NCBI GenBank assembly: GCA_041615815.1
Contig: JBFJCP010000010.1
Coordinates: 2,856 to 66,855, forward strand
Origin: Gemmatimonadales bacterium
GTDB taxonomy: Bacteria > Gemmatimonadota > Gemmatimonadetes > Gemmatimonadales > GWC2-71-9
DNA: 64,000 nt
Reading direction: 5' to 3'
A program made the translations under genes and the position numbers. The notes beneath the pieces are model-generated. The model did no database searches. It was not told where the DNA came from and saw only the letters and a program-made list of their open reading frames with translations. Below, one piece after another: positions 12,881 to 51,150 of the stretch. The stretch's first letter is position 1, and every line of letters begins with the position of its first letter.

Positions 12881-12882
12881 CG

Positions 12883-16302: not shown

Positions 16303-16545
16303 GTGAGCGACGGGGAAGAGCGACGCGTGTGGGATCTCCGGATCCGGATCGATCGGACGTTGTGTGTGGGCTTCGGCGACTGTCTGGAGGATGCCCCAGA
16401 GGCATTCTGCCTCGACGCGGAGGGGATCGCCATTTTCGCGACCCCAGAGGCGGTGGAGCGCGCGCGACTGTTGCGGGCCTGTGAGGCCTGCCCCGTGGAC
16501 GCTCTCACCGTGTGGGATGCCGCGGGCACGCAGCTGGTCCCTTGA
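16303..16545 (+). CDS. single-cluster ferredoxin (3Fe-4S/4Fe-4S type)
   Basis: GTG start directly abuts the upstream TAG. CVGFGDC...ACEACPVDAL matches the CxxxxxC...CP pattern of small Fer4_13/15-type ferredoxins. Confidence 0.75.
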   Translation: MSDGEERRVWDLRIRIDRTLCVGFGDCLEDAPEAFCLDAEGIAIFATPEAVERARLLRACEACPVDALTVWDAAGTQLVP

Positions 16546-16570
16546 CACGGGTAGCGGCAAGTCTCATACT
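16542..16570 (+). promoter_or_regulatory. sigma70-like internal promoter candidate (TTGACA-17-CATACT)
   Basis: Perfect -35 TTGACA (16542-16547) overlaps the ferredoxin stop. A 17-nt spacer and -10 CATACT (16565-16570) follow. This would give a ~140-nt leader before the USP gene. Confidence 0.3.
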
Positions 16571-16718
16571 CGCCACCGAGGTCGGCGTTGCGCGTACATT
16601 GCACTCGGCGCAGTGGTGCGCGGGATCACGCGGGGCCCTCCAGCGCCGTCGTCCAGTGATACAGCTGTACAAATCCTAGTTGGCCACCCGAACGACCAGC
16701 CTGGCCGGAGGCGGAGCC

Positions 16719-18707: not shown

Positions 18708-18709
18708 CC

Positions 18710-25722: not shown

Positions 25723-26409
25723 ATGCCATATGACTGGGGACTCCCCATCGCGGCGTCGACCTTCGCGGCGGACATCGACCGACTCTACTACATGATCTTG
25801 GTGATTACGGGCATCGCCTTCGTCATCGTGGAGGTGGCGATCGTCTGGTTTCTCATCAAGTACCGAGCACGCCCTGGTCGCAAGGCCTATTATACCCACG
25901 GTAGCGCCAAGGCAGAGGTCATTTGGACGGCCGTGCCCGCGGTAGTCGTCGTCGGATTGGGTATTCTCAGCGCGTCCGTATGGAGTCACATTCGTGGGCG
26001 GGACAGCGTTCCCCCCAATGCGTTGCCGATTGCGCTCGAGGCCAAGCAATTCGAGTGGAACGCGACGTATCCTGGTGCCGACGGGGAGCTAGGCACCGGC
26101 GACGATTTCACGATGCGGAATCTGCTGCAGATTCCGGTCAATCAGCCCGTCGTGGTTCACCTCACCTCGGAGGACGTGATTCATTCCTTCTTCGTACCCG
26201 AGTTCCGTGTCAAGCACGATGCGGTGCCGGGTATGGAGGCCCGAGTGTGGTTCGAGGCCACGATGACCGGGGAGTTTTCCATCGCTTGCGCCGAACTGTG
26301 CGGCTTGGGGCACTACCGGATGGCTGCTCGGGTCGTGGTACAAGACCAGGCCGAGTACGATCAATGGTTGGCCGAACAGGCCGCGAACCAAACCGTAGCT
26401 TCGCGTTAG
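25723..26409 (+). CDS. coxB: cytochrome c oxidase subunit II (no fused cytochrome c domain)
   Basis: RBS AAGGAGG. Two N-terminal TM segments. CuA site HSFFVPEF...CAELCGLGHYRM. Confidence 0.9.
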   Translation: MPYDWGLPIAASTFAADIDRLYYMILVITGIAFVIVEVAIVWFLIKYRARPGRKAYYTHGSAKAEVIWTAVPAVVVVGLGILSASVWSHIRGRDSVPPNALPIALEAKQFEWNATYPGADGELGTGDDFTMRNLLQIPVNQPVVVHLTSEDVIHSFFVPEFRVKHDAVPGMEARVWFEATMTGEFSIACAELCGLGHYRMAARVVVQDQAEYDQWLAEQAANQTVASR

Positions 26410-26416
26410 AGGACTC

Positions 26417-28171
26417 ATGGCGACGACAGCAGCTGCCTTCGACCACGTAGCCCACGCGCACGCCGACACGCGGTCGTTCATTCGTCGATACATTTTCTCG
26501 ACGGATCACAAGATTATCGGGATCCAGTTCCTCATTATGAGTCTGTTCTTCCTCCTCGTGGGGGGAACGCTGGCGATCATGATGCGCTGGCAGCTGGGTT
26601 TCCCCGGCGAGGCGTTTCCGGGTGGCGGTGTGCTCCCGGAGACGATGGCACCGGACGGTGTGCTCTTGCCGGAGTTTTACAACTCACTGGTGACGATGCA
26701 CGGCACGTTCATGGTCTTTTTCGCGATCATGCCGCTGCTCGTGGGTGTGTACGCGAACTTCCTGATCCCGCTCAAGATCGGCGCACCAGACATGGCGTTC
26801 CCGCGCCTCAACATGGTTTCGTTTTGGGTCGCCATGCCGGCCGGATTGATCATGATGGCGGGGTTCCTGGTGGAGGGAGGTGCCGCCGGGGCCGGATGGA
26901 CCATGTACGCGCCGTTGAGTGCCAATCCGGAATACTCAGGGGTCAGCGGAGGGCAGATTCTCTGGTGTGTGAGTATCGCGGTGCTGGGCCTCTCATCGAT
27001 CCTCGGATCGACCAACTATATCACGACCATCATCAACATGCGGGCGCCGGGCATGACCTGGTTCCGCATGCCACTCAGTATCTGGTCGCTCTTCATCACG
27101 GCGATTCTGACCATTCTGGCCATCCCCATTCTCTCCGGGGCGGCCATCATGCTGTTGTTCGATCAGCTCATCGGTACCCATTTCTTTCTGCCGCCGGATG
27201 GGGGCCAGCCGCTCCTGTGGCAGCACCTGTTCTGGTTCTTCGGCCATCCGGAGGTCTACATCCTGATCCTACCGGCCATGGGGATGGTGTCTGATATCAT
27301 CGCGAACGGCTCGAGGAAGCCGATCTTCGGATATCACTCGATGGTCTATGCCATGATCGGTATCGGCTTCCTCGGATGGATCGTTTGGGGACATCACATG
27401 TTCCAGAGTGGGATGAACCCGACGCTGGGCATGTCCTTCATGATCTCGACGATGCTGATTGCCGTGCCCTCTGCCATCAAGACGTTCAACTGGTTGGGCA
27501 CAATGTGGAGGGGGAGTATCCGTTTCCACGTCCCGATGCTCAACGCGGTCGCGTTTGTCGCGATGTTCGTGATCGGCGGGCTGAGTGGGGTGTTCATGGC
27601 CTCCACGCCCGTGGACATCCAGATTCACGATACGTACTTCATCGTGGCGCACCTCCACTATGTGTTGTTCGGGGGGAGCCTGTTCGCACTGTTTGGCGCC
27701 ATCACGTTCTGGTATCCCAAGATGTTCGGGCGGATGATGAGCGAGTTTTGGGGGAAGGTGCATTTCGTGCTGACGTTCATCTTCTACAACCTCACGTTCT
27801 TTCCGATGCACCAGATTGGCTTGGGTGGCCACATGCGGCGGATCTACGATCCGACCGAATACGAGTTCTTGCTGCCGCTGCAGGGGCTCAACCGATTCAT
27901 CACGATCAGCGCGATCCTCCTGTTCGCCACACAAACCATCTTTGCGTTGAACTTCATCATTAGTTGGTTCAGGGGGAAGAAAGCACCTGACAATCCGTGG
28001 GAGGATACCGGCGTCGAGTGGAGTACTCCTTCGCCGGCACCCCATGGCAACTTCCCGACGACGCCAACGGTCCATCACGGACCGTACGAGTTCAGCTCAC
28101 CGCTCGTGGAGGAAGACTACTTGATGCAGGATCGTAGGGTCAGCAAACCCGCGACTCCGGCCGCCAGCTGA
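26417..28171 (+). CDS. coxA: cytochrome c oxidase subunit I (A-type), second copy
   Basis: LFWFFGHPEVYILILPAMG, GHHMFQSG and VAHLHYVLFGG. 584 aa. Confidence 0.95.
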   Translation: MATTAAAFDHVAHAHADTRSFIRRYIFSTDHKIIGIQFLIMSLFFLLVGGTLAIMMRWQLGFPGEAFPGGGVLPETMAPDGVLLPEFYNSLVTMHGTFMVFFAIMPLLVGVYANFLIPLKIGAPDMAFPRLNMVSFWVAMPAGLIMMAGFLVEGGAAGAGWTMYAPLSANPEYSGVSGGQILWCVSIAVLGLSSILGSTNYITTIINMRAPGMTWFRMPLSIWSLFITAILTILAIPILSGAAIMLLFDQLIGTHFFLPPDGGQPLLWQHLFWFFGHPEVYILILPAMGMVSDIIANGSRKPIFGYHSMVYAMIGIGFLGWIVWGHHMFQSGMNPTLGMSFMISTMLIAVPSAIKTFNWLGTMWRGSIRFHVPMLNAVAFVAMFVIGGLSGVFMASTPVDIQIHDTYFIVAHLHYVLFGGSLFALFGAITFWYPKMFGRMMSEFWGKVHFVLTFIFYNLTFFPMHQIGLGGHMRRIYDPTEYEFLLPLQGLNRFITISAILLFATQTIFALNFIISWFRGKKAPDNPWEDTGVEWSTPSPAPHGNFPTTPTVHHGPYEFSSPLVEEDYLMQDRRVSKPATPAAS

Positions 28172-28181
28172 GGGAGGAGCG

Positions 28182-28862
28182 ATGGCACACGCAGCAGTGA
28201 TGCAGCCTCCGGCCTCGGCGGAGACCGGTGCGGGGGTTTATAACGAGAAGCTGGGGATGTGGGTCTTCTTGGGGTCGGAGGTCATGTTCTTCACGGCCCT
28301 CATCGGGTCGTACATCATCCTGCGCTTCGCGCAGCCGCAGGCGTGGGCAGCCCCCGGCCAGATTCTCAATATTCCGGTGACGGGCGTCAATACGTTTTTG
28401 CTGATCTGTAGCTCGGTCACCATGGTCAAGGCGTTTGCCGCCGCTCAGGACGGCGACCAGCGCATGTTGAAGGCCTGGCTGCTGGCAACGGTGCTCATCG
28501 GGGCGACGTTCGTGAGCATTCAGGTGTACGAGTATCTGGTGTTGGCGCACGAAGGATTCCTCCCGAGTGGCTATGTGGCGGGCAGTCATCTGGCCGAGGT
28601 CGCAGACGGTGGTGCGGCGTACAAGGGCGGTGCGGCCTTGCCCGAATCGGTGGGGTTGTACGGTTCCACGTTCTATACGATGACTTCCTTTCATGGCTTT
28701 CACGTTACCATGGGTGTGCTGTGCATGATCTTCGTGACGGTGAAGGCGTTTCGTGGCGGGTATACAGCGGAAGACCATCGAGGAGTCGAAGTCATTGGTT
28801 TGTATTGGCACTTCGTAGACTTGGTGTGGATCGTACTCTTTACCATCGTCTACCTGATCTGA
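28182..28862 (+). CDS. coxC: cytochrome c oxidase subunit III, second copy
   Basis: RBS GGGAGGAG. FYTMTSFHGFHVTMGVLCM and YWHFVDLVWIVLFT. Carries a ~35-aa insertion relative to the copy at 12883. Confidence 0.9.
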   Translation: MAHAAVMQPPASAETGAGVYNEKLGMWVFLGSEVMFFTALIGSYIILRFAQPQAWAAPGQILNIPVTGVNTFLLICSSVTMVKAFAAAQDGDQRMLKAWLLATVLIGATFVSIQVYEYLVLAHEGFLPSGYVAGSHLAEVADGGAAYKGGAALPESVGLYGSTFYTMTSFHGFHVTMGVLCMIFVTVKAFRGGYTAEDHRGVEVIGLYWHFVDLVWIVLFTIVYLI

Positions 28863-28880
28863 AACGAGCGGGGTCGAAAG

Positions 28881-29162
28881 ATGGAACAGAAGCCACATGC
28901 CAAGCATCCTCCGTACATGGGGATCTGGGCCGCGCTGGCCCTTCTGACCGTTCTGGAGATTGGCGTGGCGTTCTTCCAGAATTGGCCTAAGGAAGTGATC
29001 ATCCTCGTGCTCGTCGGTCTCGCGATCTGGAAGGCAGTGCTGGTGGCCATGTATTTCATGCACCTGCGCTTCGAGGGCAACCAGCTCCGAATCCTCGCCG
29101 TGGCACCGCTACCACTTGCCGTGATCCTCGTGATTGCGGTGATCACCGAGTATTTGTGGTAG
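28881..29162 (+). CDS. cytochrome c oxidase subunit IV (small bacterial type), second copy
   Basis: 93 aa with three TM segments. KAVLVAMYFMHLR parallels the copy at 13472. Confidence 0.75.
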   Translation: MEQKPHAKHPPYMGIWAALALLTVLEIGVAFFQNWPKEVIILVLVGLAIWKAVLVAMYFMHLRFEGNQLRILAVAPLPLAVILVIAVITEYLW

Positions 29163-30031
29163 CGATCGCGCTCTCGCGTTCGCGGGCAGGTGACTTTCTC
29201 GAGTTGACCAAGCCCCGCATCGTTGCCCTCGTCATGGGCACCGTTGCCGCAGGGTTCTATTTGGCGAGTCCCACCGGCCTGGCGGGGCTCGCCTTGTTCC
29301 ATACCCTGCTTGGCACGGCGCTGGTCTCTGGCGGCACGAACGCGCTGAATCAGATCGCTGAACGGGACGTCGATGCTCTGATGCGGCGTACTCGAGACCG
29401 CCCACTCCCGGCGGGCCGGCTCCGACTCCCCGAGGCGTCATTGTTCGCATGGACCACGGGCCTCGGCGGGATCGGCTATCTCGCCGCGTTCGTGAATGGC
29501 CTGGTCGCGATGCTCGCTGCCGCGACACTCGTCAGTTACGTTTTCGTGTATACACCGCTCAAGCGGCACACGTCTTTGGCAACGTTGGTCGGTGCCGTGC
29601 CCGGTGCGCTCCCGATCGCGGGGGGATGGGCCGCGGCCACGGGCGGGCTTCCGCTCGGTGCCTGGGTGCTGTTTGCCATCGTATTCATGTGGCAGCTCCC
29701 ACATTTTCTGGCGTTAGCGTGGCTGTTTCGTGAAGATTACGCGCGGGCAGGGCTCAAGATGTTGAGCGTCGTTCAAGGAGCGGATTCGACCTTTCGTCAG
29801 TCCGTTCTCTACTCGGTTGCGATGGTACCAACGAGCCTGACGCCTACCGTGATCGGCCTGGCGGGACCGTTCTATTTCTTCAGTGCGATGGGATTGTCCC
29901 TGTGGCTGATCTGGGTGGCCTGGATGGCAGCCCGCCACCAGACGGCCGCTGCGGCCAGACGCCTCTTCATGACGACGATCGTTTATCTTCCCGCGATCCT
30001 CCTCGTTCTGACGCTGGACAAGATCGGATGA
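29156..30031 (+). CDS. ctaB: protohaem IX farnesyltransferase (haem O synthase)
   Basis: GTG start overlaps the upstream gene by 7 nt. LTKPRIVALV and GTNALNQIAERDVDALMRRTRDRPLPAGRL are UbiA-family CyoE/CtaB motifs. Confidence 0.9.
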   Translation: MVAIALSRSRAGDFLELTKPRIVALVMGTVAAGFYLASPTGLAGLALFHTLLGTALVSGGTNALNQIAERDVDALMRRTRDRPLPAGRLRLPEASLFAWTTGLGGIGYLAAFVNGLVAMLAAATLVSYVFVYTPLKRHTSLATLVGAVPGALPIAGGWAAATGGLPLGAWVLFAIVFMWQLPHFLALAWLFREDYARAGLKMLSVVQGADSTFRQSVLYSVAMVPTSLTPTVIGLAGPFYFFSAMGLSLWLIWVAWMAARHQTAAAARRLFMTTIVYLPAILLVLTLDKIG

Positions 30032-32221: not shown

Positions 32222-34138
32222 CTACTTCGAGTCGTCCACGATCTCGTAATCAGCCTCGACCACGTCTTCCTTTTGCTCGCCGGCGGTGGCGCCAGCCTCC
32301 GCTCCGGCGGGCTCTTCGGCCGGGCCGGGCTCGGCCTGGGTCGCCTGATACAGCGAGGCACCCGCGGCCGAAAAGGCCTGGGAGAGCTCCTCGAGCGCGG
32401 CCTTGATCTCGCCGGAGTCGCCCGAACGGAGAGCCTTCTTGCTCCCCTCCAGGGCGGCGTCCAAGCGATCCCGGTGCGCGGACTCGAGCCGATCTGCCCA
32501 GTCCTTCATGTCCTTCTCGACCTGGTACACGAGCGAGTCGAGCCGATTCCGAGCCTCGATCTCCTCCCGACGAGCCTTGTCTTCCGACGAGTGTTGTTCC
32601 GCCTCCGTGACCATTCGCTCGATCTCTCCCTCGGACAGTCCGCTGGAGGCCTCGATCCGGATCTTCTGCTCCTTACCCGTCGCCTTGTCTTTGGCGGACA
32701 CGTGCAGAATGCCGTTGGCGTCAATATCGAACGTGACCTCAACTTGCGGCATGCCCCGCGGCGCCGGCGGAATTCCGGTCAACTGAAATCGGCCGATCGT
32801 CCGATTGTCCACGGCCATCTGCCGCTCGCCCTGGAGCACGTGGATCTCCACGGTGGTCTGGTTGTCCTCGGCCGTGGAAAAGACCTCCGACTTTTTGGTC
32901 GGAATTGTCGTATTCCGGGAAATGAGCACGGTAGTGACGCCGCCCAGGGTTTCGATACCCAGGGACAGGGGCGTCACGTCGAGGAGCAACACATCCTTCA
33001 CCTCGCCGGCGAGGACGCCACCCTGGATGGCCGCGCCGATGCCAACGACCTCGTCCGGGTTGACACCCTTGTGCGGTTCCTTCCCAAAGAAACTCTTCAC
33101 GATCTCTTGGACCTTCGGGATTCTAGTGGATCCACCAACCAGAATGACTTCGTCGATTTCCGACGGCGCAAGCCCGGCGTCCTTGAGCGCCTGCTCCATG
33201 GGAGCCTTCGTACGCTCGATCAGGTCGTCCACCAGCTGCTCGAACTTGGCCCGCGTCAGGGTCACGTTGAGATGCTTGGGACCCGATTGATCCGCCGTGA
33301 TGAACGGCAGATTGATCTCCGTCTGCGTCGTAGACGAAAGTTCCATCTTGGCCTTTTCCGCCGCCTCTTTGAGGCGCTGGAGGGCCATCGCGTCCTTGGA
33401 AAGGTCGATCCCCTGGTCCTTCTTGAACTCGGCTACGAGCCACTGAATGACCCGCTCGTCGAAATCGTCCCCGCCGAGGTGCGTGTCGCCGTTCGTGGCC
33501 TTGACCTCGAAAACGCCCTCGGCCAACTCCAAGACCGAAATGTCGTACGTCCCACCGCCGAGGTCGAAGACTGCGATCTTTTCCTCTTTCTTTTTGTCGA
33601 GCCCGTAGGCGAGCGCGGCAGCCGTGGGCTCATTGATGATGCGCAGGACTTCGAGCCCAGCGATGCGGCCGGCGTCTTTTGTCGCCTGGCGCTGGGAGTC
33701 GTTGAAGTACGCAGGCACGGTCACGACGGCCTTCTCGACCTTGTGACCCAGATAGTCCTCAGCGGTCTGTCGCATCTTCTGGAGAATCATTGCCGAGATC
33801 TCCGGCGGCGTGTACTGCTTGCCCTGGACCTCGACGGAGGCAAGACTGTTTTGGCCGGGCGCAACTTTGTACGGGACACGGGCGGTCTCCTGCGGGACCT
33901 CGTCCATCCGACGTCCCATGAACCGCTTGATGGAAAACACCGTATTCTTGGGATTCGTCACAGCCTGACGCTTGGCGACCTGTCCCACCAGCCGCTCCCC
34001 GTCCTTGGTAAACCCCACGACCGACGGGGTCGTCCGACCGCCCTCGGAATTGGGAATCACAACCGGGTCGCCGCCTTCCATGACGGCCACCACAGAGTTG
34101 GTGGTTCCGAGGTCGATGCCTATGACCTTCTCAGCCAT
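32222..34138 (-). CDS. dnaK: molecular chaperone DnaK (Hsp70)
   Basis: Trimmed to ATG 34138 ([23 protein letters not shown]). [28 protein letters not shown]. Listed + ORF 32273..34285 is an antisense shadow. Confidence 0.98.
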
Positions 34139-34276
34139 CCCAGTCTCCCTTCGATGAGAATCGATGCGCAATGCTCCGCAGAAGTCGCAGACGCAAGCCA
34201 CATACCCGAAAATCGCGCCAAATTGGCATATAGCGCAGGATGTGGCAGCGCCACGGCAGGGAAGGTATTTGCCTCT

Positions 34277-34305
34277 TTGACTTGAACTTACGCCAGTCGT
34301 AGCTT
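34277..34305 (+). promoter_or_regulatory. sigma70-like promoter candidate (TTGACT-17-TAGCTT) implying a leaderless rhomboid mRNA
   Basis: -35 TTGACT (34277-82), 17-nt spacer, -10 TAGCTT (34300-05). ATG 34312 lies 7 nt after the -10 and has no SD. Confidence 0.35.
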
Positions 34306-34311
34306 TTTGGG

Positions 34312-35091
34312 ATGTTCCCGTACCGGGACGATAACCCCAGCCTGCATAAACCCATCGTCACCTATGTCATCATTGGCGTGACGGCGGCGGTCTGGTTCCT
34401 GGTACAGGGGGCCGGGAGCCAGCCAGCGCTCGCGGAGTCCGTATGTCAACTGGGCGCCATTCCCGGGGAAATCCTCGGCCGGCTCGAGGGCGAGCGCGTA
34501 ATCCCGCTGGGGCGGGGGCTGGGATGCCGTGTGGGGTTGCAGTCCGGCACCTGGCACACCGTGGTGACCTCCATGTTCCTGCACGGGAGCTGGTTCCACA
34601 TCATTGGGAATCTGTGGTTCTTGTGGGTGTTCGGGGACAACGTCGAGGATTCCATGGGTCACGCGCGGTTCGGCGTGTTCTACGTGGTGTGCGGCGTCAT
34701 CGCTGCGATGGCCCAGATCCTCGTGCAACCGAGTTCGCCGATCCCGATGGTCGGCGCCTCAGGGGCGATCAGTGGAGTGATGGGAGCCTACCTGGTGCTG
34801 TATCCGAAAGTGCGCGTCCACATGATCGTGTTCCTCGGCTTTTTCATTACGACGGTGGCGGTGCCGGCGTATTTGATGCTTCTCTATTGGGCATTCCTGC
34901 AGGTGTTGGGCGGTCTGCCCACGGTCGCCGGTGCTGGTGAGCGCGGCGGCGTGGCCTTCATGGCCCATTTAGGCGGGTTCGTGGCAGGCGTGGCGCTCAT
35001 CAAGCTCTTTGCCAAGCGCGCATTGGTGGAAGCGCACCGACGCCACGTGGCGGTCGAGACGCACCGACGGCGTCGCCTCCCCTGGGAGTAA
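34312..35091 (+). CDS. rhomboid-family intramembrane serine protease
   Basis: Six TM segments. [18 protein letters not shown] and the catalytic [13 protein letters not shown] and AHLGGFVAG motifs. Confidence 0.85.
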
Positions 35092-35092
35092 C

Positions 35093-35362
35093 ATGTTTCT
35101 GGCACGAGTAGTGGGCAGAGTGGTAGCCACGGTGAAGCAGGACACGCTCAAGGGTCAGACGCTCCAGTGGATTCAGCCAGTCGACGCCAAAGGACACGAC
35201 CGAGGGAGTCCCATCGTGGCGGTCGATCCGATCGGGCTCGGGTCCGGCGAGCTCTGCTACTACATCACGGCGCGCGAGGCCTCGCTGACCCTGTGGGAAA
35301 CCTTTGCCGCCGTGGACGCCGGGATCGTCGGAAAGGTCGACAAGATCAATCTGGCGGACTAG
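35093..35362 (+). CDS. BMC-P (EutN/CcmL family) microcompartment vertex protein, copy 1
   Basis: Starts 1 nt after the rhomboid stop. MFLARVVGRVVATVKQDTLKGQTL...AVDPIGLGSGE...AGIVGKVDKI follows the EutN/CcmL pattern (compare MKIARVCGTVTSTQK...). 89 aa. Confidence 0.8.
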   Translation: MFLARVVGRVVATVKQDTLKGQTLQWIQPVDAKGHDRGSPIVAVDPIGLGSGELCYYITAREASLTLWETFAAVDAGIVGKVDKINLAD

Positions 35363-35525
35363 AAGCAGAGGGCGGATGGCGCATGGGATTGAGAGAAGAG
35401 TTACGGGCGCGAAGGGGAGAGTGGAGCGTATGCTCACCGGGAGGGGCGGCTGGAGGGCGGTAACCAGCTCCGGACCGCCCGCCGATCCGCCCATCGATGA
35501 ACAGCATCGGGGAGAAGCCAGGCCT

Positions 35526-35801
35526 ATGTATCTAGCGCGCGTCGTGGGCAATGTCGTGTCCACCCACAAGAACGACCGGCTGGACGGCAAGAAGCTTTTG
35601 CTGGTGCGACGGCTGGATCTGGGTGACCGATACGATGGATCGGTGGAGGTCATCGCGCTCGACGTGGTGGACGCTGGGGTAGGCGATAAGGTGTTGGTAG
35701 TCCAAGAGGGCAGTTCGGCTCGCAAGATCTTCAACGATGCCAAGATCCCCGTGCAGGCCGTGGTGGTGGGAATCGTGGAGAGTGTTACGGTGGACAAGTG
35801 A
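35526..35801 (+). CDS. BMC-P (EutN/CcmL family) microcompartment vertex protein, copy 2
   Basis: MYLARVVGNVVSTHKNDRLDGKKLLLV...ALDVVDAGVGDKVLVVQEGSSARKIF...AVVVGIVESV. 91 aa. An in-frame ATG at 35376 with a GAGGG SD would add 50 aa, but those codons are AGA/AGG-rich and un-EutN-like. Confidence 0.8.
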   Translation: MYLARVVGNVVSTHKNDRLDGKKLLLVRRLDLGDRYDGSVEVIALDVVDAGVGDKVLVVQEGSSARKIFNDAKIPVQAVVVGIVESVTVDK

Positions 35802-35845
35802 GAGAGAGCAGCGGGCAGATCGCCGCGCGGTGAAAGGACGAGGCA

Positions 35846-36835
35846 ATGCAACGTCATGAGCTCGAGGAGCTGGCGGACCTGGTAGTGCAGCAGCTGAGCG
35901 GAGGCCGGGTGTCATCCACACCTTCGTCCGTTCCCCCGTCCCACACGGCGGGTTCTTCAGTCGGGCGGTGGGAAGTGCCGGACGTGGGATGGAGGATGCC
36001 GATGGTTGGGAAGCCGGGGGCGCGGGGAACGTTGCCCGAGGTGAAAGCAACGCCCACGACGGCACCGGCAGCGCGTCAATCCATCGGCCCGTCCGCTCAA
36101 CTCCAGCGCATGGCCGACTACGTGGACCACACGTTGCTCAAGGCAGAGGCGAGGCGGGTGGAGATTGAACGGCTGTGTGACGAGGCGGCGGAACATCGGT
36201 TTGCGGCCGTGTGCGTCAATGGTGCGTGGGTCTCGTTATGTCGCAAACGGCTGGCTGGATCGGGTGTGAACGTTGCCACGGTTGTGGGATTTCCGCTCGG
36301 GGCCACAACCACGGCTACGAAAGCGGCCGAGGCCCGGGATCTCGTCGATGCGGGTGCCGACGAGCTGGATATGGTAGCTGCGGTGGGACAGATCCTCGAC
36401 GAGGAGTGGGACTATGTGGATGATGATATTCGGGCGGTAGTGGATGCGGCAAAAGCTCGAACCGTCAAGGTGATTCTGGAAACCGCGACCCTGGAGCCGC
36501 TACAAATCGTCAAAGCGTCGGCCATCGCCATGGAGGCCGGTGCCCATTTCGTCAAGACTTCCACGGGGTTCCATCCCGCGGGCGGTGCCACGGTGGATGC
36601 CGTGGCGCTGATGCGACTCACCGTTGGCGACGCGCTTGGGGTCAAGGCCGCAGGTGGGGTGCGTGACTGTGCCACGGCGGTTCGTATGATCGCGGCGGGG
36701 GCGAACCGGATCGGTACGTCGAGCGGCGTCAAGTTCGTCGACTGCATGGGGGCAGGCCCCCAAGCGCTTCACGATCTGTTGGCCGCGCCGGAGAGGCACG
36801 AGAGCGTGTGTAAGACGGGGGGATGCGGGTACTAG
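35846..36835 (+). CDS. deoC: deoxyribose-phosphate aldolase with ~88-aa N-terminal extension
   Basis: Core from MADYVDHTLLKAEA...VCVNG...VATVVGFPLG...DELDMV...KVILET...FVKTSTGF (Schiff-base Lys context)...VKAAGGVR. The extension is MQRHELEELADLVVQQLSGG followed by a Pro/Ser/Thr/Ala/Gly-rich linker. Confidence 0.85.
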   Translation: MQRHELEELADLVVQQLSGGRVSSTPSSVPPSHTAGSSVGRWEVPDVGWRMPMVGKPGARGTLPEVKATPTTAPAARQSIGPSAQLQRMADYVDHTLLKAEARRVEIERLCDEAAEHRFAAVCVNGAWVSLCRKRLAGSGVNVATVVGFPLGATTTATKAAEARDLVDAGADELDMVAAVGQILDEEWDYVDDDIRAVVDAAKARTVKVILETATLEPLQIVKASAIAMEAGAHFVKTSTGFHPAGGATVDAVALMRLTVGDALGVKAAGGVRDCATAVRMIAAGANRIGTSSGVKFVDCMGAGPQALHDLLAAPERHESVCKTGGCGY

Positions 36836-36966
36836 GGGTGGCAGAAGGTAGAAAACGAACGTGGAGGGGAAGGGGCAGCGGTGAGCGAATTGGGAGTGTG
36901 GGTTTGACGACGATGCGTCCACCGCCACTTACCCCCTCACACCGCTTCCGGCTCTCTCTCCGGTCG

Positions 36967-37656
36967 CTACACCGGCCTTTCGGCCTTGTCTTCGGCGTGA
37001 TGTTTGATGGTGGTTCCCTCCACGAGGAACACGACATCCTCAGCGATGTTCGTCGCGAGATCCCCAACGCGCTCGAGATTTCGGCTCACCAGCGAGAGCT
37101 CCATGGATGGACCGATCATCCGGTGATCTTGCGCCATGTGGGTGAGCAGGATGCGGAACATCGATTCGTGCAGTCGGTCTACCTGGTCGTCTCGGAGACA
37201 GACATCCCGAGCGGCGCGAGTGTCTCCCTTGATGAAGGCGGAAAGCACATCGGACAGCATGTCACGGGCCAAGCGCGTCATCTGCACCAGCTCGGGTGGC
37301 GGGGTGATTGGCATGGCATCGATGAGTCTGACGGCGCATTCGGCGATGTTGACTGCATGATCGCCCATCCGCTCGAGGTCGTTGGAGATCTTGAGACACG
37401 CCAACAGCAGCCGCAAATCCTTCGCCATGGGTTGCTGGAGTGCGAGTAATTGGGTAACCCGGTTCTCGATGTCGATCTCGAGATCGTCGATCTCTTGGTC
37501 CGCTGCGATCACTCGTGCGGCGAGTTCGGGGTCACGATCCAACAACGACGCTACGGCCTGTTCCAAGACTTCGACGACCTGGCTAGACATATGGAGTACG
37601 CGGTCTTTCAACAGGGCGAGCTCGTCGTGAAAATGGCGATGCGGCGGACCGGTCAT
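36967..37656 (-). CDS. phoU: phosphate signalling/transport regulator PhoU
   Basis: 229 aa, two PhoU repeats ([11 protein letters not shown]...; [14 protein letters not shown]). ATGA overlap with pstB. Confidence 0.9.
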
Positions 37657-38471
37657 CCGAATCTCCCGGTGACATAGGCTTCGGTTCGCTCTTCCCGCGG
37701 TCTCGTGAAGAGCTCCTCCGAACGGTTGTACTCCACCAACTCTCCAAGATAAAAGAAGGCCGTGTAGTCGGCGATGCGCGCAGCTTCCTGAAGGTTGTGG
37801 GTGACGATCACGATGGTGTATTCCGATTTGAGCTGAACGAGCAGCTCCTCGATCCGTTGTGTGGCGATGGGGTCGAGCGCGGACGCCGGCTCGTCCAGCA
37901 GTAAGACTTCCGATTCATTTGCGAGTGCGCGAGCAATGCAGAGTCGCTGTTGCTGGCCGCCCGACAACTCGGTACCCGGGTCATCGAGCCGATCCGCCAC
38001 CTCGTCCCACAGGGCAGCCCGCTTGAGGGCGGTCTCGACGCGGCCGGGCAGTTCGACCCTCGTACAGAGGCCATTGCGTATGGGGCCGTAGGCGACGTTA
38101 TCGAAGATGGATTTCGGGAATGGGTTTGGGTGTTGAAACACCATGCCGATCCGCCGTCGGAGTTCCACCACGTCTGTGTCGGGAGAGTAGATGGATTGGC
38201 CGTCGTACGTGATGTTGCCCTGGTAACGCGTCTTCGGAATCAATTCGTTCAGGCGATTGATGGACCGAAGCAGGGTGCTTTTTCCACAGCCCGATGGTCC
38301 GATGAACGCCGTGATCTTTCTGGGCGGGATCTTGAGTTGGATGTTGCTGAGCGCCTGGGTTCTACCGTACCAGAAACTGAAATCCCCGATGTCGAGAAGC
38401 GGCTCGATGACCTCGACGGGCGGCAAGTGTTCCCCGGGATCGCCGAGCTCGGGACGCGGAGCCGCGCTCAT
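37653..38471 (-). CDS. pstB: phosphate ABC transporter ATP-binding protein PstB (copy 1)
   Basis: [49 protein letters not shown]. Confidence 0.92.
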
Positions 38472-45158: not shown

Positions 45159-47498
45159 ATGATCGGGCTTCTTTCCATCGCTCTGCTCGCCGGCCAGTTG
45201 GCCAGCGAGGACACGCTCCACCTCGTTGTCGTGGCCACCACGGACGTGCATGGCCGCGCGTATCACTGGGACTACGCCGAGGACCGGGAGGCCCCGTGGG
45301 GGATCACGCGTGCTGCGACGGCGATCGATTCCCTTCGGGAGGCTTATCCGGGTCGGGTCCTGGTGGTGGATGCGGGGGACTTGATTCAAGGCGATGCCTT
45401 CGCGGCCTATTTCGCGGAGCAACGGGTGGTCGTGCCGCACCCCGTGGTGGAGGCGTTGAACACCGCCGGTTTCGATGCCGCGACGCCGGGAAATCACGAG
45501 TTCAATTGGGGTCTCGACCTCTTTGCGCGGGCGATGGCGTCGGCCGCGTTCCCCGTGGTCTCGGGTAACCTCTATCGTCTGCCCCGTGACACCCTGGCGT
45601 TCCCGCCGTTCAGCGTCCTGGTGCGTCAGGGAGCCCGCGTGGGCGTCACGGGCTTTACGACACCGGGCGCCATGGTGTGGGACCGGGCCAATCTCAGGGG
45701 ACGATTGCTTGTGCGTCCCATCCTGCCGGAGGCTCGGCGCGTGCTCCAGGAGCTGGCGGCGGCCGGCGCCGATCTGCGGATTGCGGTCATTCACAGTGGT
45801 ATGGACGGACCGTCGAGCTACGACACTCGTGGGGTGGGTGAGGAAAACGTGGCGATGGGATTGGCCCGGTTGCCCGTTCCGCCCCATCTCGTGGTTGTGG
45901 GACATACCCACCGCGTGATGCGTGATTCCGTCGTGAATGGAGTGCACTTCATCCAGCCCCCGCCGCACGCTCGAGGTCTGGCGGTGGCACACGTGTGGAT
46001 GGTGAAAACGAACAGAACGGATGTTGGACGATCGGGTGGGTTCGAGGTCGCGCGGATTCAGGGGGAGACCATCTCCCTCGACGAGGTTCCGCCGCATCCG
46101 GTAGTGACGGCTCGGTTGGCGAGTGCGCACGAGGCCATCCGCGTGTGGGTGAATCAACCCATCGCCGAGGTCGTCGAGGGTGACTGGAGCGCGTGGTACG
46201 GACGAGCTGAAGACACGCCCATTATCGATTTTCTCAACGAAGTCCAGCGGATGGCTGGGGGGGCGGAGCTCTCCGCCACTGCGGCATTCAATCCCAGGGC
46301 GCGCTTTGGACCCGGCGAGGTGCAGCTGCGTGACGTTGCCGCGCTCTATCCGTACGAGAACACGCTCAGAGTGATCGTGATCGACGGTCGCACGCTCAAG
46401 GCGTATCTGGAGCAGTCGGCGGCGTATTTCCGCACGTATGTCCCGGGCGCGCCAATCATCAACGACAGCATGCCGGGGTACAACTTCGACATCGTGAGTG
46501 GTGTCGATTATGTGCTCGATCTCACGCAGCCCGTTGGGTCGCGTGTGCGGCAGATTACGTACGGCGGGCGTTTGGTGCAGCCCACGGACACGTTTACGAT
46601 GGCGCTGAACAGTTATCGCCAGGGCGGTGGTGGAGGTTTTACGATGTTACGGGACGCTCCCGTGATCTTCGACGGCCAGGACATTCGGGATCTGGTGGTC
46701 GAACACCTTCGAGTCGTGCGCTACTTGCGCGCGCGCGATTACTTCACCCCGTCGTGGCGAATCGTGCCCGAAGCTGCGGCGACTGCCGTCCGGGATGCCT
46801 TGGGTCCGGCGCCAGTGGCGCTTGCACGGGTACCCGAGCCACGGGGCCGAACGGACACATTGCGCCCCACGGATCCCAATGCGCATTTGCCATACGAAGT
46901 GCAGGGGCGGTTCACGCGGCCCCTGGCAGAGATCAAGGTTCCGCTGATTCCCACGGGCTCAGAGCACGGCTTGGGGCGATTGGTCGCCGACGCCTACCGC
47001 GGCGCCGCGCGGGCGCACGTGGCCGTCGTACCGAACGCCCGCCTGACCGTGACCTTGCCGAGCGGTCCGATCACGGAAGGCCACATCGATTCCGTTCTGC
47101 CGGTGCCGGACGAGCTCGTCACGCTGGAGTTGACCGGTCGGCAGCTCACTGCGCTCTTCGAGTTGGCGGTGCAGCCGGGCGAACCGACGATTCACGTGTC
47201 CGGGGTACAAGTGGTATTCGATCCAGGGCGCCGGGTCGGTCGCCGAATTCGTGAGGTACGATTCCCAGACGGTGAGAAGGTGAAGGACAACGACACCTAT
47301 CGACTGGCGGTACCGGCAACGCTCGTCTCTCAAGAGGGACTCCTGATCCCCGTGGGCGGAGGAGCCTCCTCCGCACTGGACCGGTTTGCCGTCGAGCGCA
47401 CGGGCGTGAGGGAGAACGAGGCACTCTTGGCCCACCTACAAGCCCTGCGACAACCCGTGGCGCCGCCCCCAACCCCCCGATTCCGCATGAGGCGTTGA
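45159..47498 (+). CDS. secreted bifunctional metallophosphoesterase/5'-nucleotidase (UshA/CpdB-like)
   Basis: Signal-like MIGLLSIALLAGQLA. Calcineurin-like motifs TTDVHG, DAGDLIQG, GNHEFN, GHTH. A 5'-nucleotidase C-terminal-like region follows. Confidence 0.85.
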   Translation: MIGLLSIALLAGQLASEDTLHLVVVATTDVHGRAYHWDYAEDREAPWGITRAATAIDSLREAYPGRVLVVDAGDLIQGDAFAAYFAEQRVVVPHPVVEALNTAGFDAATPGNHEFNWGLDLFARAMASAAFPVVSGNLYRLPRDTLAFPPFSVLVRQGARVGVTGFTTPGAMVWDRANLRGRLLVRPILPEARRVLQELAAAGADLRIAVIHSGMDGPSSYDTRGVGEENVAMGLARLPVPPHLVVVGHTHRVMRDSVVNGVHFIQPPPHARGLAVAHVWMVKTNRTDVGRSGGFEVARIQGETISLDEVPPHPVVTARLASAHEAIRVWVNQPIAEVVEGDWSAWYGRAEDTPIIDFLNEVQRMAGGAELSATAAFNPRARFGPGEVQLRDVAALYPYENTLRVIVIDGRTLKAYLEQSAAYFRTYVPGAPIINDSMPGYNFDIVSGVDYVLDLTQPVGSRVRQITYGGRLVQPTDTFTMALNSYRQGGGGGFTMLRDAPVIFDGQDIRDLVVEHLRVVRYLRARDYFTPSWRIVPEAAATAVRDALGPAPVALARVPEPRGRTDTLRPTDPNAHLPYEVQGRFTRPLAEIKVPLIPTGSEHGLGRLVADAYRGAARAHVAVVPNARLTVTLPSGPITEGHIDSVLPVPDELVTLELTGRQLTALFELAVQPGEPTIHVSGVQVVFDPGRRVGRRIREVRFPDGEKVKDNDTYRLAVPATLVSQEGLLIPVGGGASSALDRFAVERTGVRENEALLAHLQALRQPVAPPPTPRFRMRR

Positions 47499-47737
47499 CT
47501 CGCCGTATCGGCGTCTATGTCAATGAACGCCCGGTCCAGGTAGCGCCGGGCTCGACCGTCGTACAGGTGGTCGAGCAGGTGGATGCAGTCTGGGGCAACG
47601 CCGTTCGGTCCGGGCTCGCGTACGTGACCGACGGAGTGGGACGTCGCATCTCCCCCTCGACGAACGTCGTTCCCGGGTCCATCTTGCGCGTCGTCCATTC
47701 AGCTCGAAGAGCGAAGCCCGATCGCGATCTCGCATGA
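47495..47737 (+). CDS. small ThiS/MoaD-like beta-grasp protein lacking a C-terminal Gly-Gly
   Basis: Bracketed by 4-nt overlaps (TTGA at 47495, ATGA at 47734). IGVYVNERPVQVAPGSTVVQVVEQVD...AYVTDGVGRRISPSTNVVPGSILRVV parallels the ThiS pattern. Ends HSARRAKPDRDLA. Confidence 0.5.
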   Translation: MTRRIGVYVNERPVQVAPGSTVVQVVEQVDAVWGNAVRSGLAYVTDGVGRRISPSTNVVPGSILRVVHSARRAKPDRDLA

Positions 47738-48759
47738 CGATGAATAAGGAGTTGATCCAGCGCCTTCCGAAGGCGGAGCTCCACGTACATCTGGATGGGT
47801 GCATTCGCCCCACCACGATGGTTGCCCTGGCCAAGGAACAGAGTGTGCGGCTACCGGCGGCGGAGCCCGAGGCATTAGCGCAGGCGATGTACGTGCGCGA
47901 TGCCCACAGTCTCGAGGAGTATCTCGCGAAGTACGAATACACGTTGGCTGTCATGCAGACACCGCGTGCCATGGAGCGCATCGCGTACGAATTCGTCATC
48001 GACTCCGCGGCAGACGGCGTGCGTTACACTGAGGTGCGGTATTGCCCGGCCCTGCACACGCCCGCCCTGAGTCTCACCGAGGCCGTGGAGGCTCCGCTCG
48101 AAGGGATCCGGCGTGCGGAAAAGACGTCAGGCACGCAGGCGCGGCTCATCATCTGTGGTCTGCGAACGTTGTCTCCGCGGGTTTCGGAGGATTTGGCTCG
48201 ACTAGCGGCGGACTATCGCGGCGATGGAGTGGTCGCGTTCGACCTCGCGGGTTCGGAGAAAGGACACCCGGCGCGGGACCACGTGAAGGCGTTCGAGCAC
48301 GCCCTCGGACACGGACTAGCGTGCACCTGTCATGCCGGAGAGGGCGATGGTCCAGAGTCGATTCGGCAGGCGCTGCATGTTTGCGGTGCGCAGCGAATCG
48401 GCCATGGCACCCACCTGTTCGAGGATCCAGCACTCGAAGAGGAAATCCGCGACAAGCGGATCCCGCTAGAAGTGTGCCTCACATCCAATCTCCACACGCG
48501 GAGCGTCGATGCGGTCGAGCAGCATCCCATGCGTCGGTATCTGGACGAGGGGTGCGTGGTAACCCTCAATACGGATAGCAGATTGATGGATGGCATCACG
48601 CTCAGCGACGAATACCTGCTAGCACACACGGCGTTGGGTTGTGATCGCCGGGAAATCGATCAGCTCATTCTCAATGGATTCGAGAGCTCATTTCTCCCCG
48701 AGGACGAAAAGGCCAAGCTCGTGCAACAGGTGCGGGCGGAGCTCGATGAGATCGCATGA
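47734..48759 (+). CDS. add: adenosine deaminase
   Basis: LPKAELHVHLDG, CHAGE, RIGHG, TLNTDS. Confidence 0.92.
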   Translation: MTMNKELIQRLPKAELHVHLDGCIRPTTMVALAKEQSVRLPAAEPEALAQAMYVRDAHSLEEYLAKYEYTLAVMQTPRAMERIAYEFVIDSAADGVRYTEVRYCPALHTPALSLTEAVEAPLEGIRRAEKTSGTQARLIICGLRTLSPRVSEDLARLAADYRGDGVVAFDLAGSEKGHPARDHVKAFEHALGHGLACTCHAGEGDGPESIRQALHVCGAQRIGHGTHLFEDPALEEEIRDKRIPLEVCLTSNLHTRSVDAVEQHPMRRYLDEGCVVTLNTDSRLMDGITLSDEYLLAHTALGCDRREIDQLILNGFESSFLPEDEKAKLVQQVRAELDEIA

Positions 48760-50135
48760 CGGCGCTGATGCTACTCCAGGAAGCCGGGCAGCTGGCGGCC
48801 ACGCGGGAAGGCCTCGATACCCCGCTCCTCGCGCGGCTGATGGGACTCGTCGGTATGGCGTCGATGATCGCCATCGCCTGGGTGATCTCGGTCGATCGCC
48901 GCAAGGTCAACTGGCGCTTGGTTGGAGTGGGCGTGGCGCTGCAAGCGACGTTCGGGTTCATCGTGCTCAAAACCACGGTGGGGCGAGCCCTCTTCCGCGG
49001 CGCCAATGCCGTCTTTACGAGACTCTTGGGATTCACCGAGGAGGGAGCACGGTTCATCTTCGGGAATCTGGTCACCAACAACGTGCCGGTGGGGCCTGTC
49101 ACCGGACCCCCCGCCCAGTCGGCACCGATCGCATCGGTGGAGATGTGGGCTAACACCGGGGCGTTCTTTGCGTTCACGGTCTTGCCGACCATCATCTTCT
49201 TCTCGTCCCTCATGTCCGTGCTGTACTATCTCGGCATCATGCAGCGGGTGGTGAAGGGCATCGCGTGGCTCATGCAACGAGTGATGGGGACCTCGGGGGC
49301 CGAGACGCTTTCCGTGGCGGGGAACATCTTCGTCGGGCAGACGGAATCGCCACTCTTGATCAAGCCGTTCGTTGGTAGGATGACGTACTCGGAGCTCAAC
49401 ACCGTGATGGTGGGTGGGTTCGCCACGATCGCCGGTGGTGTCCTGGCCGCATACGTGGCGATGCTCACACCGTTCTTCGAGGATATCGCCGGTCATCTCC
49501 TGACGGCGAGCGTGATGAACGCTCCGGCGGCGCTCCTCATTTCCAAGGTGCTCGTTCCGGAGGTTGGCGAGCCGGTAACGAAGGGCTCACTCAAACTGAC
49601 CATAAGTAAGGAAGAGGCGAACGTCATCGACTCGGCGGCCGCCGGAGCATCGCAAGGAATGCAACTGGCGTTCAATGTAGGCGGGATGCTGATCGCGTTC
49701 GTGGCGTTCATCGCCCTGCTCAACTATCTCGTGGCCGCGCTGGGTGGCGTCGTGGGACTGGATGGGCTCACCCTCGAGCGGATCTTTGGCTGGGTGTTGG
49801 CACCACTGGCCTGGTTGATGGGGGTGCCGTGGGCCGACGCCGGGCAGGTGGGAGCGCTCATCGGGGTCAAGACCGTGCTCACGGAGTTCATTGCCTACCT
49901 GCAACTGGCGGGGACGCTGGCGGTCGACGGCTCGCTCTCCCCCCGTGGCGCCGTGATTGCCACGTACGCGCTGCTGGGATTCGCCAATCTGCCGTCGATC
50001 GCGATCCAAATTGGCGGAATCGGTGGAATCGCGCCGGAGCGACGAGGCGATCTTTCCCGCCTCGGTGTGCGGGCGATGGTGGGCGGCAACCTGGCCGCCT
50101 TCATGAGCGCGAGTCTGGCGGGAATGCTGCTATGA
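48756..50135 (+). CDS. nupC: NupC/CNT-family nucleoside transporter
   Basis: ATGA overlap with add. GNIFVGQTESPLLIKPF and polytopic CNT-family architecture. Confidence 0.88.
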   Translation: MTALMLLQEAGQLAATREGLDTPLLARLMGLVGMASMIAIAWVISVDRRKVNWRLVGVGVALQATFGFIVLKTTVGRALFRGANAVFTRLLGFTEEGARFIFGNLVTNNVPVGPVTGPPAQSAPIASVEMWANTGAFFAFTVLPTIIFFSSLMSVLYYLGIMQRVVKGIAWLMQRVMGTSGAETLSVAGNIFVGQTESPLLIKPFVGRMTYSELNTVMVGGFATIAGGVLAAYVAMLTPFFEDIAGHLLTASVMNAPAALLISKVLVPEVGEPVTKGSLKLTISKEEANVIDSAAAGASQGMQLAFNVGGMLIAFVAFIALLNYLVAALGGVVGLDGLTLERIFGWVLAPLAWLMGVPWADAGQVGALIGVKTVLTEFIAYLQLAGTLAVDGSLSPRGAVIATYALLGFANLPSIAIQIGGIGGIAPERRGDLSRLGVRAMVGGNLAAFMSASLAGMLL

Positions 50136-50271
50136 CGGCAGACGGCAGAGGGTCAATGTCGATTGGTGGCGTGCATCCTCAGTCCATGCAGTGCAACGCA
50201 CGAGCGGCAAGCGCGAATGCTGAGTCCGGTTCTCTGCCCTCTACCCTCTGGCCTCTGCCTTCTCCTCTCTC

Positions 50272-51150
50272 ATGACCATCAAGGGTGCGCGCAAACGTTC
50301 CCGTCCCGCAGCCCCCTCGATTCGTGAGCGGGCTGCCACCGGAGCCTTGCTCCGTGACGCCGTCGCAGCGATCCGACAACGGGTGGGGTCGCAAAGACCG
50401 TCCGTGGCCATCGTGTTGGGCTCTGGGTTGGGGGGTCTCTCGGGCGCTGTGGACGATGCGCGGATCATCCCGTATGGAGAGATCCCCGGCTTCCCGGTCC
50501 CCAAGGTCGTCGGTCACAGCGGCGAACTCGTCGTGGGAACGCTGGAGGGGGTGCCGGTGATCCTCCAAAGCGGCCGGTTTCACATGTATGAGGGGCACGC
50601 CCCGGAGGTGGTCGTTCTTCCCGTCCGTGTGTTCGCCGAGCTTGGCGTCGGGACGCTCATCGTCACGAACGCCGCCGGCGGGATTCGACACACGTTCCGG
50701 CCTCCCACGCTCATGCTGATCGCTGATCACATCAACCTGATGTGGCGCTCGCCGCTTCGGGGGCCGGTCCAAGCACCCGAGGGCCGGTTTCCCGATATGT
50801 CGGAGCCCTACAGCCGACGCTTGCAGCGCCTTGCACAAGAAGTGGCGGCGGCCGAAGGAATTGGGCTCGAAACAGGCGTCTACGTGGCGGTGCTCGGCCC
50901 GAGCTTCGAGACGCCAGCGGAAGTGCGTATGCTCGGGTCGCTGGGGGCAGACGCCGTCGGCATGTCCACGGTTCCCGAAGTGACGGTGGGCCGTGCTCGG
51001 GGTATGGACGTGCTGGGGATCTCCACGATCTCCAACTTCGGGGCCGGCCTCTCCCCCAATCCCCTCTCGCACGAGGAGGTTTTGGAAGCCGGGAAGGCGG
51101 TGGCGCAGGACCTGGAGCGATTGGTCCGCGGAGTGGTGAAGATGTTGTAG
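50272..51150 (+). CDS. purine nucleoside phosphorylase (trimeric PNP/inosine-guanosine family)
   Basis: GRFHMYEGH, VTNAAGGI, LGPSFETPAE, GMSTVPEV. Confidence 0.9.
   Translation: MTIKGARKRSRPAAPSIRERAATGALLRDAVAAIRQRVGSQRPSVAIVLGSGLGGLSGAVDDARIIPYGEIPGFPVPKVVGHSGELVVGTLEGVPVILQSGRFHMYEGHAPEVVVLPVRVFAELGVGTLIVTNAAGGIRHTFRPPTLMLIADHINLMWRSPLRGPVQAPEGRFPDMSEPYSRRLQRLAQEVAAAEGIGLETGVYVAVLGPSFETPAEVRMLGSLGADAVGMSTVPEVTVGRARGMDVLGISTISNFGAGLSPNPLSHEEVLEAGKAVAQDLERLVRGVVKML

Follow-up and report, generated by a model that had tools for sequence, protein, structure and literature searches.

In 2014, single-cell genomes of Gemmatimonadetes were noted to contain a bacterial microcompartment (BMC) locus of the SPU type, with a DeoC-like aldolase (PMC4207490). 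A study published in Communications Biology in 2024 found that in all SPU-associated deoxyribose-phosphate aldolases (DERA, encoded by deoC) the N-terminus is extended by a stretch with an amphipathic helix. Other DERAs lack this extension, automatic annotation often misses it, and its removal solubilises the enzyme (PMC11585597). Here we describe a deoC gene with such an extension in a Gemmatimonadales bacterium, located directly downstream of two genes encoding BMC-P shell proteins. The gene lies in a stretch of 64,000 nucleotides (positions 2,856 to 66,855 of contig JBFJCP010000010.1, assembly GCA_041615815.1), which was analysed as a whole and is called the window below; all coordinates refer to it. 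In our reading the gene product is a catalytically competent DERA that is the cargo of a BMC by way of an N-terminal encapsulation peptide (EP) and a tether, and the locus is a satellite of a fragmented, FRAG8/SPU-like microcompartment of Gemmatimonadota. We give this reading a probability of roughly 0.78.

FRAG8 was defined in the BMC catalogue of Sutter et al. (2021) as a type found mostly in Gemmatimonadetes, with pfam01791 "in almost all loci" (PMC8217296, Supplementary Data 2). Its shell set consists of a BMC-P triplet and a standard BMC-H, and three of seven loci encode an aldehyde dehydrogenase (AldDh) with a C-terminal EP (PMC8217296 supplement). The same authors reported pfam01791 enzymes with an "EP-like N-terminal extension" that are encoded away from the HO loci (PMC8217296).

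The protein encoded in the window resembles the SPU-type DERA of SPU6 from Chloroflexi bacterium GWB2_54_36 (PMC11585597) in that both belong to PF01791, have a conserved catalytic Asp and two Lys, and begin with an amphipathic helix that leads an extension of ~70–90 aa. In both cases the gene adjoins BMC-P genes, and the extension is missing from non-BMC DERAs and often goes unannotated. The SPU-type extension is made of the helix and two beta strands, whereas here the helix is present and AlphaFold2 predicts no strands for aa 20–88. In the Gemmatimonadota extension there is also neither the CxxCxxxCxxxC motif nor the "GADRIEYHG" segment of the Chloroflexia, and Gemmatimonadota DERA has instead a W-R-[M/G]-P motif of its own and a C-terminal tail rich in Cys and His. 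An SPU locus encodes RPI (PF02502), AldDh (PF00171), BMC-H and BMC-P. Only BMC-P is adjacent to DeoC here, and since RPI, AldDh and BMC-H are not found nearby the locus is not an SPU member in the strict sense. It is better described as a FRAG8-like satellite locus, sharing with FRAG8 the phylum, the dispersed shell genes and an SPU-type pfam01791 aldolase beside BMC-P genes, although the available part of the catalogue text mentions no EP on the FRAG8 aldolase. MUF2, another BMC type of Gemmatimonadetes, may be an alternative label. HO-type BMCs (PMC8217296) likewise have a satellite of two BMC-P genes and an aldolase (HO type I), and genomes with them encode, outside the main shell locus, a DeoC with an EP-like extension; HO-type BMCs are, however, myxobacterial, and the available part of their description does not specify the satellite aldolase as DeoC. 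Given the earlier reports on FRAG8 and on SPU DERAs, what we describe extends a known kind of feature to one more lineage and is not a new mechanism, and the EP interpretation is supported but not new.

The DeoC gene and its catalytic core

A first-pass annotation, made from the DNA letters alone, had started the gene at ATG 35846, leaving 88 open codons before the MADYVDHTLLK motif at codon 89 (ATG 36110), and had taken these codons to encode an EP-like helix and a flexible linker. The sequence bears out this description. ATG 35846 is the first start codon past the upstream in-frame stop, the DeoC stop occupies 36833–36835, and the start lies 44 nt beyond the end of the second BMC-P gene, as had been stated. 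The plausible ribosome binding site that had been pointed out corresponds to a purine-rich stretch recognised by consensus match only (Table 1); purine-rich stretches also precede the conserved ATG in orthologous DeoC loci. The G+C content of third codon positions (GC3), estimated at about 70% for the extension, was measured as 0.727, against 0.723 in the core.

The Pfam DeoC match (PF01791, E=5.4e-16) spans aa 91–294 only, and the 39 matching sequences of solved DERAs align only to aa 81/88–299/304. It follows from these limits that the protein has 88 extra N-terminal residues. A phmmer search with DeoC against the PDB gave chain 3r12 (E=3e-63), and Foldseek matched DERA structures over ~210 columns with target-normalised TM-scores of 0.93–0.97. 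In an alignment including TM_1559, D175, K208 and K237 are the equivalents of D102, K167 and K201 of Escherichia coli and are invariant or nearly so. Judged from these alignments, the gene is one for a DERA with intact predicted catalytic residues. More than 100 full-length homologues of 300–350 aa, with query coverage of 99–100%, were obtained from a search of 5.8 billion proteins, and all those that carry an organism name come from metagenome-assembled genomes (MAGs) of Gemmatimonadetes/Gemmatimonadales. An Rfam scan of the 64-kb window gave no match, and a scan of 34000–37800 for promoter and terminator consensus sequences gave nothing beyond the expectation from shuffled sequence.

Translation of the N-terminal extension

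It could be argued that the extension is an annotation artefact, the true start being ATG 36110 or a codon nearby and the 88 upstream codons GC-rich DNA that is open by chance. The openness of the frame says little against this, because the chance of 88 stop-free codons is estimated at ~13% at the given G+C, because the antisense frame is open as well, and because several unrelated high-GC DeoC loci also have long open upstream frames. In addition, some database entries among the orthologues (e.g. P0010, P0035 and P0068) begin downstream.

The extension is nevertheless more than a product of chance, because it is conserved among homologues. Among the 118 homologues with the DHT motif, in which the extension has a median length of 71 aa, the N-terminus matches the helix pattern E-[LIMV]-x2-[LIVM]-[AVI]-x2-[IVL]-[AV..]-x2-[LVMI] in 92. 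The shared consensus M-x3-E-[LI]-x2-[LI]-A-x2-[VI]-[VA]-x2-[LV] is followed by a linker of variable length. The N-terminal Met and the helix are thus kept in more than 90 homologues, and the codons inside the helix differ synonymously between loci. A start at codon 89 had been named beforehand as the outcome that would speak against the extension. What was found is that orthologues mostly carry V or I at residue 89 (R-[V/I]-A-D) and codon 89 is no conserved start, whereas the N-terminal M-x3-E-L is kept; an internal start at M89 was rejected on this ground. Furthermore, the DNA upstream of some of the short entries encodes the helix in an open frame, as at L006 and L009 (L numbers denote loci, P numbers homologous proteins), and the same annotation problem has been described before (PMC11585597). 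Conservation thus largely refutes the late start, which we regard as very improbable, and the extension is, as far as conservation at the protein level can tell, real coding sequence.

DeoC with and without shell genes

DeoC was compared across 55 GTDB loci, in which shell genes were scored within 10 kb. Every locus with shell genes in this range has at least one DeoC copy with an extension of 44–109 aa. Apart from Gemmatimonadota, shell-linked loci were found in Planctomycetota, including Kuenenia (L016, L023, L024 and L032), in Chloroflexia with SPU6-like loci (L034, L036–L038, L041, L043, L048, L053, L054 and L056), in Polyangiaceae (L040, with an RpiB-DeoC fusion) and in Spirochaetales (L018). 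Most of the shell-linked extensions open with an amphipathic helix, those of Gemmatimonadota, Planctomycetota and Chloroflexia among them. DeoC proteins without shell genes (from Olsenella, Bdellovibrio, Bacillota and others) mostly have 7–13 aa before the DHT motif, in agreement with the earlier statement that a typical DeoC starts a few residues before it; a few shell-less DeoC on short contigs have 20–43 aa. The extension is therefore a trait that is present on shell-linked DeoC and absent from most unlinked DeoC and from solved DERAs.

Within the Gemmatimonadota, the order of a divergent dnaK followed by rhomboid, BMC-P, BMC-P and DeoC with extension is kept in all recovered loci, eight of them distinct (L001, L004, L005/L008, L006, L007 and L009–L011); L006–L011 come from MAGs of this phylum. 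The extension could have turned out to be missing from orthologues that also adjoin BMC-P genes; it is conserved in all of them.

Two further observations were made on DeoC copies in the comparison set. The SPU-like loci L036 and L038 of Chloroflexia (10028–11351) contain a tandem DeoC pair, of which the first has an extension with a helix and a Cys4 motif (see below) and the second a short N-terminus. In L046, from a Mycobacterium sp. MAG, a DeoC with a 42-aa helix-like extension (MTDLTALIARADEEVTAVLG...) is encoded upstream of position 6466, and the 17 kb of this locus contain no shell gene.

The amphipathic helix

The AlphaFold2 model of DeoC (84-sequence alignment, mean per-residue confidence (pLDDT) 82, predicted TM-score (pTM) 0.76) has the barrel at pLDDT >90 and a helix at aa 3–19 with pLDDT of ~75–83, followed by predicted disorder at aa 21–80; the structure prediction that had been suggested as a check thus agrees with the helix and the flexible linker. 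The model of the orthologue P0097 has the same layout. L6, L9, A10, V13, V14 and L17 are the hydrophobic positions of the helix, which has a net charge of −3 and a hydrophobic moment of 0.46, a value equalled by 205 of 10,000 shuffles (2%). Polar residues are found at positions 2, 3, 5, 7, 11 and 16 in 82 distinct N-termini, and the positions outside the pattern (2, 3, 7, 11 and 16) are 80–100% polar across homologues. Past position 18 the segment differs among homologues both in sequence and in length.

The classical EPs are those of PduP, PduD, EutC and EutE, reportedly described by Fan et al. (2010) and Kinney et al. (2012). The DeoC N-terminus is like them in having a terminal amphipathic helix (~18 aa in the classical EPs, ~15–20 residues as the general trait) with hydrophobic residues at i, i+3/4 and i+7, and a poorly conserved flexible linker. 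As an example, the EutE peptide, which we take to be MNQQDIEQVVKAVLLKM, may be compared with that of the orthologue P0028, MNQQELEQIANLVVAKL. The cargo enzyme and the BMC type are different, the linker is longer here (~68 aa) and contains one conserved motif, and for the DeoC helix a targeting role is predicted.

A membrane-targeting or secretion signal at the N-terminus was also considered, prompted by the neighbouring gene for a rhomboid-family protease, which is always found upstream of the unit and ends 1 nt before the first BMC-P gene. With its net charge of −3, and with neither a hydrophobic core of at least 10 residues nor a twin-arginine or signal-peptidase motif, the N-terminus was rejected as such a signal. 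The substrates of DERA are cytoplasmic sugar phosphates, which counts against it as well, and we find a signal hardly credible.

The linker and its WRMP motif

The Pro/Ser/Thr/Ala/Gly-rich tract that had been noticed after the helix makes up the linker (Table 1), and aa 21–80 have a pLDDT below 50. The linker contains a short conserved motif at aa 41–52 which, like the first of the two BMC-P genes, the first-pass annotation had overlooked. W49, R50 and P52 of this motif are invariant in a 29-sequence alignment of extensions, and WR[MG]P was found in 60 of the 118 homologues. In a six-frame scan of the examined loci, WR[MG]P was confined to the DeoC extension. A profile of the extension alone, searched against 1.84 billion representatives, gave three matches, all of them DeoC fragments with the same extension; the extension therefore shows no detectable similarity to other proteins. 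The WRMP motif is specific to Gemmatimonadota DeoC and appears to be new. AlphaFold2 predicts no structure for it in the window protein. One subclade has a second Trp motif, AAW[TK]P..G.RR, which is packed on the barrel in the AlphaFold2 prediction (pLDDT 87), and in the extension of P0097 the model is confident only in the last ~13 residues before the barrel, with the segment "AAWTPAAG".

A variant of encapsulation deserves mention here, in which the helix mainly drives aggregation between cargo proteins, nucleating the core by way of EP–EP bundles or of the insolubility reported for full-length SPU DERA, and contact with the shell is made by another element, such as the WRMP motif or the EP of a partner. 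This would be in line with the second conserved motif in the tether, and with the observation that full-length SPU6 DERA is insoluble and becomes soluble once its N-terminal extension is removed (PMC11585597). The present results, on the other hand, do not separate shell binding from cargo bundling, and AlphaFold2 monomer models give the motif no structure. We consider this variant possible, and would not put it higher than that.

The C-terminal tail and other cysteine motifs

The first-pass annotation had also passed over ~30 extra residues at the C-terminus, which read VDC(300)MGAGP...H(318)ESVC(322)KTGGC(327)GY(329). C300 and C322 show no variation, conservation of H318 and G325 reaches 90% or more, and 83 of the 112 homologues have the tail motif. 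AlphaFold2 models the tail with pLDDT of 76–85. Neither solved DERAs nor the examined BMC-linked DERAs of other phyla have the motif, and this C..H...C..G.C..Y tail appears to be new. One may speculate that the tail, close to the catalytic C-terminal Tyr, is a site for metal binding or redox chemistry.

Cysteine motifs of another kind were observed between helix and barrel in the extensions of BMC-linked DERAs from seven Chloroflexia loci (L034, L037, L041, L043, L048, L054 and L056), from one Planctomycetota locus (L032) and from the Polyangiaceae locus (L040). This Cys4 motif mostly has the form CxxCxxxCxxxC, and CxxCxxCxxC in L040, and it is encoded ~100–200 nt upstream of the DHT motif. 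A term search finds no discussion of it in the main text of PMC11585597.

It is conceivable, if doubtful, that the WRMP motif is a second, previously undescribed docking motif, for the co-encoded BMC-P vertex proteins or for aldehyde dehydrogenase, and that the tail with C300, H318, C322 and C327 acts as a metal- or redox-dependent switch of DERA activity in the compartment, functionally analogous to the N-terminal Cys4 motif of the other phyla.

Shell genes and gene neighbourhood

The region 34312–36835 contains four closely spaced genes on the + strand, for the rhomboid protease, BMC-P1, BMC-P2 and DeoC (Table 1). In all Gemmatimonadota loci (L001–L011) the rhomboid gene is directly upstream of the BMC-P pair, and the BMC-P genes are kept upstream of DeoC. 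The rhomboid gene is probably part of the BMC-P operon, because its stop codon lies 1 nt from the start of BMC-P1. To our knowledge, rhomboid proteases have not been linked functionally to microcompartments. Around them, BMC-P, BMC-P and DeoC are ringed by housekeeping genes.

Table 1. Coordinates of the features discussed in the text
Feature	Position	Strand	Basis and remarks
Rhomboid-family membrane protease gene	34312..35091	+	PF01694, E=3.7e-35; stop 1 nt before BMC-P1 start
BMC-P1, pentameric vertex shell protein (EutN/CcmL), 89 aa	35093..35362	+	PF03319, E=3.4e-20
BMC-P2, second EutN/CcmL vertex protein, 91 aa	35526..35801	+	PF03319, E=2.8e-25; tblastn
Purine-rich Shine-Dalgarno-like stretch GAAAGGACGAGG	35832..35843	+	2 nt before ATG; consensus match only
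DeoC/DERA gene including N-terminal extension	35846..36835	+	329 aa plus stop; open reading frame listing
EP-like amphipathic helix MQRHELEELADLVVQQLSG	35846..35902	+	aa 1–19; AlphaFold2, homologue pattern
Linker	35906..36109	+	aa 21–88; 57% P/S/T/A/G; predicted disordered; length and sequence vary among orthologues
Short conserved motif in linker RWEVPDVGWRMP	35966..36001	+	aa 41–52; core D-x-[GSA]-W-R-[M/G]-P
DERA TIM-barrel catalytic core	36110..36742	+	aa 89–299; PF01791, PDB match, Foldseek
Lineage-specific C-terminal tail	36743..36832	+	aa 300–329; C300, H318, C322, G325, C327, terminal Y329
Nucleoside-catabolism genes: 5'-nucleotidase, adenosine deaminase, NupC-type transporter, purine/uridine nucleoside phosphorylase	45159..51150	+	Pfam; 8 kb downstream
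Second 5'-nucleotidase	57791–59452		PF05761 family

Nucleoside-catabolism genes, located downstream of DeoC in the window, flank the BMC-P/DeoC unit in the Gemmatimonadota loci L005–L009 as well, and genes for adenosine deaminase (ADA), NupC and purine nucleoside phosphorylase (PNP) flank BMC-P/DeoC also in four Planctomycetota loci (L016, L023, L024 and L032). They probably provide deoxyribose phosphate. This set of genes fits the function proposed for SPU microcompartments, that is, the breakdown of deoxyribose phosphate from nucleosides or DNA, with acetaldehyde kept inside the shell (PMC8217296; PMC11585597). The linkage of DeoC/BMC-P to nucleoside-catabolism genes appears to be new.

Several results weigh against encapsulation in a BMC. 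The helix is only moderately amphipathic, with moments of 0.46–0.50 here against 0.61–0.82 for what we take to be the peptides of PduP, PduD, EutC and EutE. Neither the 64-kb window nor the ±10 kb around DeoC in any of the Gemmatimonadota loci contains a gene for BMC-H (PF00936), BMC-T, AldDh, RpiB or PduL. A tblastn search of the whole window with BMC-H, CcmK and EutN gave the two BMC-P genes only, and Pfam scans of the open reading frames (ORFs) of the window gave no match to PF00171, PF02502 or PF00936. When all ORFs of complete SPU-like loci (L016, L018, L023, L032, L034 and L040) were searched by tblastn against the window and the Gemmatimonadota loci, no AldDh, RpiB, PTAC or BMC-H/T was found there; the only ORFs with homologues in the window or its flanks were DeoC, BMC-P and nucleoside genes. 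Among the 120 matches listed for the SPU/HO-type BMC-H of L040 there is no Gemmatimonadota label, which is not evidence of absence. As no BMC-H gene was found in the window or the flanks, we infer the shell in this genome, and do so on the basis of the FRAG8 description in the literature (PMC8217296). Finally, searches with hidden Markov models of EPs in genomes with fragmented loci gave no matches (Sutter et al., PMC8217296).

The same lack of BMC-H, AldDh and RpiB, in the window and around DeoC in the eight related loci, would be expected if the extension acted outside a BMC, as a tail of cytosolic DERA that serves oligomerisation, regulation or partner binding, for instance by tying DERA to a second enzyme via the helix and the WRMP motif, with BMC-P genes that are relics or otherwise employed. 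The WRMP motif, conserved and lineage-specific yet without a known BMC role, could be accommodated in the same way. Such a cytosolic tail is, however, difficult to reconcile with DeoC extensions that track with shell genes across four phyla, or with the strictly conserved gene order with two BMC-P genes. Moreover, the helix pattern resembles experimentally defined EPs, and in FRAG8 Gemmatimonadetes BMC-H is reportedly encoded at another place in the genome (PMC8217296 supplement). We therefore consider a purely cytosolic role unlikely and prefer encapsulation, where the comparison of DeoC with and without shell genes, the AlphaFold2 models and the literature all support the EP-like reading of the N-terminus that the first-pass annotation had put forward.

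Proposed function

If DERA is physically encapsulated, the first ~19 residues would form an acidic amphipathic helix that serves as the EP. This helix would dock on the lumenal face of shell proteins, bundle with the EPs of partner enzymes such as aldehyde dehydrogenase, or do both, and thus nucleate the cargo core. A disordered tether of ~68 residues would link it to the TIM barrel and carry the lineage-specific W-R-M-P motif, presumably for docking. The products of the neighbouring NupC, PNP, ADA and 5'-nucleotidase genes would import and phosphorolyse deoxynucleosides. The shell would then hold acetaldehyde, which is toxic and volatile, up to its oxidation. Together with DeoC, the two BMC-P genes would constitute a satellite locus of a fragmented (FRAG8/SPU-like) Gemmatimonadota microcompartment, with BMC-H and AldDh presumably encoded elsewhere in the genome.

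Other genes in the window

Two sets of cytochrome c oxidase genes (COX2/COX1/COX3) are located at 9700–13464 and 25723–30031, the second with COX4 and a UbiA-family gene. These two sets indicate an aerobic lifestyle for the organism that encodes the BMC parts. At 16680–20044 there are two adjoining genes whose products end in PCP_red (PF08369), one with Usp domains and the other with radical-SAM and SPASM domains, and this pair adjoins a gene for a cytochrome bd-like subunit I at 20034–21752. Four long ORFs on the − strand have coding-like GC3 and no Pfam match at E<=1e-4: 1590–4208 (872 aa), 4693–5469 (258 aa), 13865–15289 (474 aa) and 15856–16560 (234 aa).

Significance

Gemmatimonadota are abundant bacteria of soil and freshwater, and their fragmented microcompartments are poorly understood. 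The general picture of encapsulation peptides is unchanged by the present analysis. It settles which start codon is correct in a gene family often truncated in databases, and it lends support to regarding DERA as a signature enzyme of the fragmented microcompartments of Gemmatimonadota and deoxyribose phosphate, from nucleosides or from DNA, as their substrate. How cargo may be recruited and regulated in a BMC with genes dispersed over the genome can be approached through the lineage-specific WRMP motif and the Cys/His tail.

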